Sequence record: SRR20825010_6902
Length of the DNA: 34,491 nucleotides
Direction: 5' to 3' (one strand)
Shown here: piece after piece, positions 4,761-21,449 of the stretch
Position numbering within the stretch: position 1 is the stretch's first letter
How the letters are laid out: each line of letters starts with the position of its first letter
Translations under genes and position numbers: made by a program
Notes under the pieces: generated by a model
Told to the model about the DNA's origin: nothing
Database searches by the model: none
Seen by the model: only the letters and a program-made list of their open reading frames with translations

Positions 4761-4949
4761 ATTAGTTTTCAAAAATGTTTGCCCGCTTTAGACCAAACAA
4801 AGATACCTTCACATATGGCCCAAACTTTTTGGGACCACAAAATTAGAAAATTGACACCCGAAAAACAAAGTATAACAACCCTGTTATAGGTATCAAATAA
4901 ATTAATAAAATCAAGTAAGGAAAAGTTTTGGACCTGCGTCTTTCTTTAT

Positions 4950-5099
4950 GTTATCTATTCCCAAATTAAATTCCAGCCAAATAGAATAAAACATAGGATT
5001 AGAACGTAGCACCTTCTTTATTCTTCTCGATAGATACCGACTACGAAAAAGGGTTGCTAAGGCTTCACCGGGTCTAGTCCCTCCGCCTTTCTTGATAAC
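4950..5099 (-). ncRNA. SAM-I (S-box) riboswitch upstream of the metH unit
   Basis: Minus strand reads GTTATCAAGAAAGGCGGAGGGACTAGACCCGGTGAAGCCTTAGCAACC...GGTGCTACGTTCTA...GATAAC: P1 GTTATC/GATAAC, P2 kink-turn, GCAACC/GGTGC P3, L2 TAGA / J3-4 TCTA pseudoknot. Confidence 0.95.
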
Positions 5100-5125
5100 G
5101 TTTCAAATTGATAATGAACTAAGTG

Positions 5126-19790: not shown

Positions 19791-19931
19791 TGTTATCTGC
19801 CATGGATACTGTAAAACAAGCCATAATAATTTGGCCCAGTACTTAGGTAGAATTTAGCACCTTCTTTAATAAATGATCAAAGGGTTGCTAAGGCTTCAAA
19901 GGGTCTATTCCCTCCACCTTTCTTGATAACA
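19791..19931 (-). ncRNA. SAM-I (S-box) riboswitch upstream of metY
   Basis: Minus strand reads TGTTATCAAGAAAGGTGGAGGGAATAGACCCTTTGAAGCCTTAGCAACC...GGTGCTAAATTCTA...GATAACA: P1 TGTTATC/GATAACA, extended P4 (GTACTG/CAGTAT, GGCCA/TGGCT). Confidence 0.95.
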
Positions 19932-19960
19932 ATTCAATAAGTGTTTGAACTTTAGGTTTG

Positions 19961-20007: not shown

Positions 20008-21264
20008 TTATAAATCGAAAGCTTCTTTCACCAAATCCACAGCATCCAATTTCTCCCAGGTAAATAATTCCACTTCCTTTTCTACACGTCCGTTGTAAGG
20101 CGATTCAAACACCTTGATCATTTTTTTAGGGTCTTTGCCCATATGACCATAGGCGGCTGTTTCCAAATAAATGGGATTTCTTAATTTTAGCCTTTCTTCT
20201 ATGGAAAAAGGACGCATATCGAACAATTGTGCAACTTTCTTGGCAATCTCGCCATCGCTCAAAGCTACTTTAGCGGAACCATAGGTATCCACAAAAATAG
20301 AAGTGGGCTCCACAACCCCAATAGCGTAACTAACCTGAACCAAAATTTCATCGGCAACCCCTGCAGCAACAAGATTTTTGGCTGCATGCCTAGCGGCATA
20401 TGCGGCACTGCGATCTACCTTACTGGGATCTTTTCCACTAAACGCACCCCCACCATGGGCTCCCTTGCCTCCATAGGTATCCACAATAATCTTTCTTCCA
20501 GTTAGACCGGTATCACCGTGGGGACCTCCAATTACAAATTTCCCCGTAGGATTAATATGGTACTTTATAGTATCGTTAAAAAGCTTTTGTATTGCCACTG
20601 GCAATTGTTCCTTGACCCTCGGAATAAGAATGGAAATAATATCCTTCTTAATTTTGGCCAACATTACATCATCATCCTTATCAAACTCGTCATGTTGGGT
20701 AGAAACAACAATAGTATCTATACGTTGCGGAACATTATCATCGGAATATTCGATGGTCACTTGTGCCTTGGCATCTGGCCTTAGATAAGAAATTGCATCT
20801 CCTACCCTTCTCAAATCTGCCAAAACCTGCAATATTTTATGGGAAATATCCAGGGCCAAGGGCATATAGTTTTCCGTTTCCTTAGTAGCATAGCCGAACA
20901 TCATACCTTGATCTCCTGCCCCCTGATCTTCTTTTGCTCCACGATCCACTCCTTGGTTGATCTCTTTGGACTGCTCGTGTATCAAGGAAATAACACCACA
21001 GGAATCTCCGCTAAACTTATAATCACCATTAGTGTAGCCAATTTTATTGATAACATCCCTCGCAATTTGCTGAACATCAAGATAGGTGTGGCTTTTAACC
21101 TCCCCGGCCAATACCACCTGACCAGTAGTGACCAAAGTTTCGCAAGCCACCTTACTTTCCGAGTCAAAAGCCAAAAAATGATCCAATAACGCATCACTAA
21201 TTTGATCCGCTATTTTATCTGGATGCCCTTCACTAACCGATTCCGAAGTAAATAAATATGCCAT
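20008..21264 (-). CDS. metK: S-adenosylmethionine synthetase
   Basis: [35 protein letters not shown] signatures. Confidence 0.98.
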
Positions 21265-21354
21265 AAATCCTTTCTAAATAAAAATTAATAGGGATTTGAC
21301 GAAGCACACTAGAGAAGAGTGGATGTTACAGCTCCAATGGAACAGAACAACTTA

Positions 21355-21425
21355 AACTGCTTTAGCATTTAGTTATGCCGAAACTAATTCAGCACATGAG
21401 GTTGCAATCAGTCAAATCCTTCCTC
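21355..21425 (-). ncRNA. SAM-II-type riboswitch aptamer (long L3 with inserted hairpin) upstream of metK
   Basis: Minus strand reads GAGG-AAG-GATTT-GACTG-ATTGCA-A-CCTC-[TGCTGAA/TTCGGCA hairpin]-AAA-TGCTAAA-GCAGTT: H-type pseudoknot with the SAM-II GAUUU, AUUGCA and GCUAAA elements in the canonical order. Confidence 0.8.
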
Positions 21426-21441
21426 GATATTTTTTCGCATA

Positions 21442-21449
21442 CAAAAGTA
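21442..21449 (-). promoter_or_regulatory. Bacteroidota -7 promoter element (TACTTTTG) for the metK leader
   Basis: Exact TAnnTTTG match just upstream of the aptamer. Confidence 0.7.

Follow-up and report, generated by a model that had tools for sequence, protein, structure and literature searches.

How can an S-adenosylmethionine (SAM) riboswitch govern translation of a gene whose start codon lies far downstream of the aptamer, in bacteria that initiate without Shine-Dalgarno (SD) pairing? The question is raised by the leader of metK, the gene for S-adenosylmethionine synthetase, in a 34,491-nucleotide (nt) stretch of DNA, SRR20825010_6902 (hereafter the window). Bacteroidota make no use of SD sequences, Flavobacterium mRNAs are without them, and mRNA structure tunes initiation, according to the available portion of Baez et al. 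(2019, PMC6847099). An original prediction, made from the DNA letters alone, proposed that one short leader segment, GUCAAAUCC, has two mutually exclusive partners, a SAM-II-type aptamer and the start site of metK, so that SAM would free the segment to bury the AUG. Our analysis places the aptamer in a known family and gives comparative support to GUCAAAUCC as a conserved competitor of its fold, whereas the relay to the AUG is plausibly the specialization of one lineage.

We scanned the window with all Rfam families at their gathering thresholds and obtained three matches in total: two SAM-I aptamers and, upstream of metK, one SAM-II long-loop aptamer (RF01726), which scores above its gathering score (Table 1) and bears out the predicted SAM-II-type element. 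The match runs over the entire model (positions 1-60 of 60), the cmscan alignment places a 20-nt insertion in its long loop, and L3 is a long, A-rich loop with an inserted hairpin, as RF01726 expects. The window element is a member of this known family, and its sequence suggests that it binds SAM. All three S-AdoMet synthetase Pfam domains are present in the 418-amino-acid (aa) metK open reading frame (ORF). The absence of an SD element from the aptamer's 3' end, also part of the original prediction, holds up: the aptamer ends at 21352, 88 nt upstream of the ATG.

Comparison with relatives carries most of what follows. Named relatives of the window metK, from Flagellimonas (86% identity) and Euzebyella (85%), place the window in the Flavobacteriaceae, and relatives were gathered around the nearest genome, G001. 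RF01726 matches once per genome in 35 of the 41 relatives, among them all 25 genomes of the genus. Across the family, sampled at one genome per genus, it is found in 144 of 151 genomes, in 141 of them above the cut-off; three of the family genomes (G112, G147 and G182) have two matches each. This family search listed 147 places, of which 90 were newly read, 2 were already in the sample and 55 were left out; because the 90 comprise the 30 best-scoring places and 60 chosen for matches of at least 71 nt, as in the window, this choice affects all family-wide counts. RF01726 lies directly before metK in 30 of 30 loci and in 119 of 120, the exception being L033; the metK N-terminus aligned to homologues in 119 of 120 loci, and the distance from the GCUAAA tail motif to the ATG ranges from 50 to 117 nt (119 loci). 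To the window's own leader the one-per-genus set used below adds 89 leaders of the family and 9 of other families in the order, 99 in all; the remaining 21 genomes of the window's genus do not enter the one-per-genus counts.

Within the window, the proposed pairing of GUCAAAUCC with the aptamer segment GGAUUUGAC proves to be exact over all nine positions. In 595 of 20000 shuffles (about 3%), the aptamer (80 nt) and the leader downstream of it (97 nt) share a perfect complement of at least 9 nt; on the window sequence alone the pattern is only mildly beyond chance, and its weight comes from the relatives. Among the 99 leaders, the 8-mer GTCAAATC is present exactly in the spacer of 42 (0.17 expected from shuffles) and within one mismatch in 59 (3.4 expected), the exact copies starting 26-45 nt upstream of the ATG. 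An unbiased count of spacer 6-mers in the same leaders has as its top four TCAAAT (56 against 5.5 expected), CAAATC (51 against 3.0), GTCAAA (50 against 1.7) and CGTCAA (46 against 0.8), all of them supplied by the anti-aptamer strand. When duplexes between the aptamer's 5' half and the spacer were compared with dinucleotide shuffles, 74 of 120 leaders reached p<=0.05 and 39 reached p<=0.01, with a median z of -2.17.

The strand also covaries with its target. For this comparison we aligned the 77 leaders in which the 8-mer is present with at most one mismatch, a choice that makes eight of the nine pairs paired by selection and leaves the ninth not selected on. This ninth pair is G-C in 32 leaders, A-U in 31, G-U in 2, unpaired in 6 and a gap in 6; its covariation is matched by none of 500 shuffles, and pairing is far poorer in every slid register. 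Both pair types occur within groups set by the tail variant, an unrelated character, and G-U and A-C intermediates are present, which points to more than one evolutionary event. The P1 and pseudoknot pairs of the aptamer are 99.2% paired in the same alignment. P1 has 98.7% of cells paired and shows compensatory changes, with two pairs kept through changes on both sides (3 rows each); the pseudoknot pairs are 99-100% paired and mostly invariant, and so indicate compatibility rather than covariation.

Folding yields the same helix. From the 22 leaders of the genus, RNAalifold predicts the anti-aptamer helix unprompted (columns 10-16 with 136-142), and, with no pseudoknot imposed, most leaders have it as their minimum-energy fold. 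The strand occupies L1 together with two nucleotides of the pseudoknot's 5' strand and therefore cannot coexist with the ligand-binding fold; GGAUUUGAC overlaps the pseudoknot pairs at alignment columns 17-18. The proposal that the leader segment competes with the aptamer thus stands, and GUCAAAUCC is well supported by comparison as a conserved competitor across many Flavobacteriaceae genera. Other lineages appear by eye to pair different parts of the aptamer strand: L088 sets aptamer UGCUUGC against GCAAGC downstream, where its relatives set UGAUUGC against GCAAUCA.

Table 1. Features of the metK locus. Coordinates are positions of the 34,491-nt window; all leader elements are on the minus strand.
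Feature	Position or sequence	Strand	Remarks
metK (S-adenosylmethionine synthetase)	20008..21264	(-)	418-aa ORF, ATG 21264-21262; Pfam PF00438, PF02772 and PF02773 match
SAM-II long-loop aptamer (RF01726)	21352..21431	(-)	cmscan 54.4 bits, gathering score 44, E 6.5e-8
Aptamer P1	GAGG 21425-21422 with CCUC 21401-21398	(-)	Closes the loop holding GAUUUGACUGAUUGCAA
Aptamer L1/P2 5' strand	GGAUUUGACUGAUUGC	(-)	Part of the RF01726 aptamer
Inserted hairpin in aptamer L3 loop	21397-21375	(-)	Compensatory changes in the L3 hairpin
Pseudoknot 3' strand	GCUAAAGCAGU, 21366-21356	(-)	Pairs with loop ACUG, UU, GC
Aptamer target segment	21411..21419	(-)	GGAUUUGAC (DNA GGATTTGAC); L1 and first two nt of P2 5' strand
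Anti-aptamer strand	21292..21300	(-)	GUCAAAUCC (DNA GTCAAATCC); exact reverse complement (9/9) of 21419-21411
Small spacer hairpin GUUCC-AUU-GGAGC	21331..21343	(-)	RNAalifold, genus alignment
Pyrimidine box ACUCUUCUCUAG	21309..21320	(-)	Candidate second anti-aptamer strand, partly complementary to pseudoknot 3' strand CUAAAGCAGU
Predicted AUG-occluding hairpin AGUGUGC-UU-CGU-C-AAAUCC ... GGAUUU-AUG-GCAUAUU	21255..21310	(-)	Folding
Start-site copy AAGGAUUU	21265..21272	(-)	8-nt copy of aptamer positions 21421-21414; abuts the start codon
Candidate Bacteroidota -7 promoter box TACTTTTG (TAnnTTTG)	21442..21449	(-)	Predicted from the motif

We then consider the second partner of GUCAAAUCC, the start site. 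The hairpin that pairs the AUG folds as originally drawn (21312-21252, -11.3 kcal/mol), and it is the minimum-energy fold of the remaining leader when the aptamer is locked. GGATTT (21270-21265) touches the metK ATG, and the longest word common to the start region and the aptamer strands is the 8-nt AAGGAUUU (p ~0.01 against shuffles). Among the 22 genus leaders, a shared word of at least 6 nt is found in 16, the GGAUUU copy at the ATG in 17, and anti-aptamer-to-start-site complementarity at p<=0.05 in 17; 87.4% of the hairpin's cells are paired.

Analogous designs with other segments occur elsewhere. In L010, GUCAUAU pairs with AUAUGGC, and in L106 a GGAUUU of its own stands at the AUG and faces GCAAUCC. 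The segment copied in a short-spacer group (L031, L032, L035-L039 and L046) is the pseudoknot 3' strand, which recurs as (U)AAAGCA 4-9 nt ahead of the AUG, and this copy faces UUGCUUU, which is also complementary to the true aptamer tail. In short-spacer leaders, L044 included, a hairpin UUGCUUU...AAAGCAA ends 4-9 nt before the ATG, its 5' strand being complementary to the tail UAAAGCA and its loop carrying CAAAUCCUUCC, complementary to GGAAGGAUUUG; by its sequence this hairpin looks like a compact version of the same switch logic. In the largest clade (L079-L118, for example L083 and L102), a local hairpin GACG-N4-5-CGUC stands in the spacer before the GUCAAAUC strand and can tie up the anti-aptamer strand's first bases, and its GACG resembles the GAC(U)G of the aptamer. 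In L083 and L102, CCAUA just 3' of the anti-aptamer strand can pair with the start-codon UAUGG. A family-wide rule of an aptamer copy at the start site was tried and rejected, with only 6 of 99 leaders significant. Taken across lineages, the start-codon relay is plausibly a lineage-specific specialization.

These elements suggest the following mechanism. The metK mRNA would begin a few nucleotides upstream of the SAM-II long-loop aptamer. At low SAM the pseudoknot would not be held, and GUCAAAUCC, once transcribed, would pair with L1 and the start of P2 in GGAUUUGAC; this would keep the aptamer unfolded and GUCAAAUCC occupied, so that the start region, emerging about 30 nt later, would stay open and metK would be translated. 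With SAM bound, the pseudoknot would hold GGAUUUGAC and leave GUCAAAUCC free to pair with AAGGAUUU beside the AUG; together with flanking pairs, this would bury the AUG and the first codons and block initiation without any SD element. A kinetic, SD-independent translational OFF switch of this kind is our best reading of the window, and we give it about an even chance of being correct; SAM binding, OFF as its polarity, a kinetically set order of folding and output through the AUG hairpin are what we infer.

The order of folding matters to this reading, as the growing transcripts show. The anti-aptamer pairs have a probability of 0.97-0.99 from the synthesis of the strand until the start region emerges, which makes sense of the design as a kinetic, co-transcriptional switch. 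In these models, which are without pseudoknot, ligand, kinetics or ribosome, the three-way switch would work only as such a device, a plausible one.

Several results weigh against the OFF switch just described. At equilibrium the start site of the window is scarcely affected, its unpaired probability going from 0.388 (aptamer free) to 0.379 (aptamer locked); for the 99 leaders accessibility is 0.570 free and 0.550 locked (median difference 0.015), with 31 leaders that rise by more than 0.05 and 16 that fall. In the full-length RNA without ligand, the AUG hairpin has a pair probability of 0.87 against 0.10 for the anti-aptamer pairs, and the ensembles with either helix forced are nearly equal (-47.56 kcal/mol for the anti-aptamer helix, -48.87 for the AUG hairpin). 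Among the 21 ORF starts of the window, ranked from the most structured by predicted accessibility, metK comes only 6th, and 9 of 200 dinucleotide shuffles fold as well as the hairpin (z -1.88). Covariation, sought for both helices, is present for the ninth anti-aptamer pair and lacking for the AUG hairpin over the 22 genus leaders: 172 of 500 shuffles reach its observed pairing, its score is 0.108 against a shuffled mean of 0.109, and several single changes break outer pairs, leaving 5 and 7 unpaired cells at two positions. Conservation divides in the same way, in that the anti-aptamer segment is kept, whereas the GGAUUU copy is absent from 5 of the 22 genus leaders (L010, L011, L012, L014 and L015) and anti-aptamer-to-start-site complementarity at p<=0.05 is limited to 9 of 99 leaders, with a median z of -0.69. 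Distance also counts: in the available part of 10.1101/867226, an effect on transcript level is reported for Bacteroides thiamine pyrophosphate (TPP) riboswitches separated from the start codon by more than 40-50 nt, and the separation here is 88 nt. The predicted relay to the AUG is partly supported: its hairpin is the minimum-energy fold of the locked state, it shows no covariation in the genus, and equilibrium folding predicts no change in start-site accessibility.

Could the output lie at the transcript level instead? In that case the SAM-bound state would expose the C-rich, G-poor tract from ACUCUUCUCUAG to GUCAAAUCC, Rho would load or a ribonuclease attack, and the metK mRNA would be shortened or degraded, with the AUG hairpin incidental or an add-on of one lineage. 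We consider this less likely than the translational switch; output through Rho or decay is its main rival, and a serious one, especially family-wide. The anti-aptamer strand is family-wide and the AUG relay is not; once released, the strand of the largest clade forms the local GACG...CGUC hairpin instead of pairing with the start site, with nothing obvious covering the AUG. Spacers are rich in C and poor in G (means 0.208 and 0.106, with C exceeding G in 95 of 99 leaders), although the minus strand of the window overall is G-rich (C 0.166, G 0.238), and 13 C and 4 G lie between 21325 and 21290. Such a C-rich spacer is, however, expected anyway from complementarity to the purine-rich aptamer strand, and the exposed tract is short, about 40-90 nt. 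Rho itself is encoded in the nearest genome (Rho_RNA_bind, 121.5 bits, in a 566-aa frame), but we know of no Rho-dependent riboswitch in Bacteroidota. Among Bacteroides TPP riboswitches, as described in the accessible part of 10.1101/867226, those far from the start codon lowered the mRNA level and adjacent ones acted on translation, which favors a transcript-level output here.

Intrinsic termination fares far worse. The hairpin at 21310-21255 forms only when GUCAAAUCC is free and is followed by the U-rich run UAUUUAUUUACUU, so that the two could make a SAM-dependent terminator inside the first codons; but in the leader a terminator scan found nothing, the AU-rich, bulged stem closes a 21-nt loop at only -11.3 kcal/mol, and the run encodes the conserved A-Y-L-F-T codons and is found in almost all leaders, hairpin or not. 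We regard a terminator as the least probable of the explanations considered. It is also highly improbable, if marginally less so, that the complementarities in the window are by-products of chance or composition and that the aptamer regulates by an unrelated route. The single-sequence statistics are indeed weak: beside the 3% for the 9-mer and the hairpin's z of -1.88, the window's best aptamer-to-spacer duplex is unremarkable by energy (z -0.15, p 0.40), a further point against the OFF switch. With the 8-mer kept in 42 of 99 genera and the ninth pair covarying, chance is almost refuted as the source of the anti-aptamer strand and stands as a reading of the AUG hairpin. A broader possibility, which we hold tentatively, is that the conserved anti-aptamer strand, possibly one of two, is the true expression platform across the Flavobacteriaceae, and that lineages wire its release to an SD-less start in different ways, through copies of aptamer segments beside the AUG or through Rho or decay.

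The second such strand would be the pyrimidine box, ACUCUUCUCUAG, which we keep only as a candidate. Of the 99 spacers, 23-29 contain words akin to it (AACTTC, CTTCCT and ACTTCC), where 2-3 would be expected. The pairing of the box with the pseudoknot tail is weak by duplex energy (p<=0.05 in 14 of 99 leaders), in the window its pairing with the pseudoknot 3' strand has two internal mismatches by eye, and complementarity of the anti-tail to the start site is at chance (7 of 99 leaders). The small spacer hairpin, which lies between the aptamer and this box, stays paired within the genus: RNAalifold pairs columns 84-87 with 99-102, two of these pairs are kept through changes on both sides, and the stem variants GUUCC/GGAGC, UGCUC/GAGCA, GUCU/AGAC and CGUUGU/ACAACG are paired throughout (columns 84-102), with differing stem sequences in L016, L017 and L011.

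Upstream of the aptamer, the promoter-box block is kept in 22 of 22 genus leaders, and its motif, TAnnTTTG, sits at -12 to -5 in Flavobacterium according to the available text of PMC9723704. From this box the metK transcript is predicted to start at about 21437, a few nucleotides before the aptamer. Contigs from two RNA-type libraries reach at most 21426, a weak hint only as to the transcript start, and contigs from RNA libraries join the leader to the metK coding sequence, which is likewise weak and uninformative on ends, strand, level and mechanism.

Some leaders vary in the aptamer itself or in what follows it. In L085 and L099, GGC replaces GAC before UGAUUGC in the aptamer and the tail AAAC replaces AAAG, which suggests that a facing A and G in the pseudoknot can be replaced by a G-C pair; GGC in place of GAC before UGAUUGC is listed also for L003, L006 and L009. 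Bacteroidales metK leaders (L170, L176, L196, L200 and others) have the same aptamer type, with P1 GUGG/CCAC and GCUUGC in the loop, but after the aptamer they are much longer and AU-rich, and by eye other downstream segments are apparently used; in L196 a hairpin followed by a U run could be a terminator. Judged by their sequences, the expression platforms clearly differ between orders.

The two SAM-I aptamers (RF00162) of the window lie at 19824-19932 (-) and 4948-5101 (-), with 66.9 and 65.3 bits. The one at 19824-19932 follows the metK stop and precedes a Cys/Met pyridoxal phosphate (PLP) enzyme and a 1128-aa fusion protein (an alpha/beta-hydrolase domain with aspartokinase and homoserine dehydrogenase); that at 4948-5101 precedes a homocysteine S-methyltransferase gene. 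Two SAM riboswitch classes thus split the work in one genome, SAM-I serving methionine synthesis in two operons and SAM-II long-loop serving metK. [quoted passage not shown]

How riboswitches control genes in Bacteroidota, whose mRNAs lack SD sequences, is largely open, as stated explicitly in the accessible part of 10.1101/867226. The metK leader offers a concrete, mutable model in which a known aptamer is combined with a competitor strand found in dozens of genera and, in one lineage, with a copy of an aptamer segment on the start codon. Sister species with and without this copy (17 and 5 genomes of one genus) form a ready-made comparison. If lineages do wire the anti-aptamer strand in different ways, these leaders would make a natural series on riboswitch control of initiation without SD pairing.

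Compared with known systems, the aptamer is familiar and the conserved anti-aptamer strand is undescribed as far as the literature was searched: no published description of this expression platform was found there, Additional File 1 of Weinberg et al. (2010) lying outside the search. In the accessible part of that paper (PMC2864571), 'SAM-II long loops' (RF01726) are listed for Bacteroidetes and marine sequences. The window shares with RF01726 the full-length match, the conserved core, the pseudoknot, the long L3 loop and the SAM-gene context; the Rfam model is of the 60-position aptamer only, and both the strand about 50 nt downstream and the AUG hairpin fall outside it. The Bacteroides TPP riboswitches (Costliow, Degnan and Vanderpool, 10.1101/867226) are likewise cases of riboswitch control in a phylum without SD use, and translational and transcript-level modes were both seen there experimentally. 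Their ligand and aptamer are different, the available part of that study leaves the molecular platform open, and its distance rule would class the window leader as a transcript-level switch.

Classic SAM-II riboswitches (RF00521; leaders of metX and metA in Proteobacteria; structure 2QWY) are H-type pseudoknots with a U-rich L1 in the groove of P2, and the 3' strand of the pseudoknot contains or adjoins their ribosome-binding site. The pseudoknot, the L1 arrangement and an expected SAM-responsive OFF logic are alike in the window, where RF00521 itself stays below its gathering score in the Rfam scan. An alternative among classic members is a terminator after the aptamer, as given in the accessible part of PMC2258182. 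Unlike a classic platform, with start codon and SD within a few nucleotides of the aptamer 3' end, the window has its aptamer end at 21352 and its ATG at 21264, no SD element and a separate competitor strand. Riboswitches of the sequestor/anti-sequestor type, such as the TPP riboswitch of E. coli thiM, let one strand alternate between the aptamer and the initiation region, where it hides the SD sequence. The alternating strand is common to the proposed design of the window, which would instead hide the AUG and its flanks, the sequestered segment being a literal 8-nt copy of part of the aptamer.

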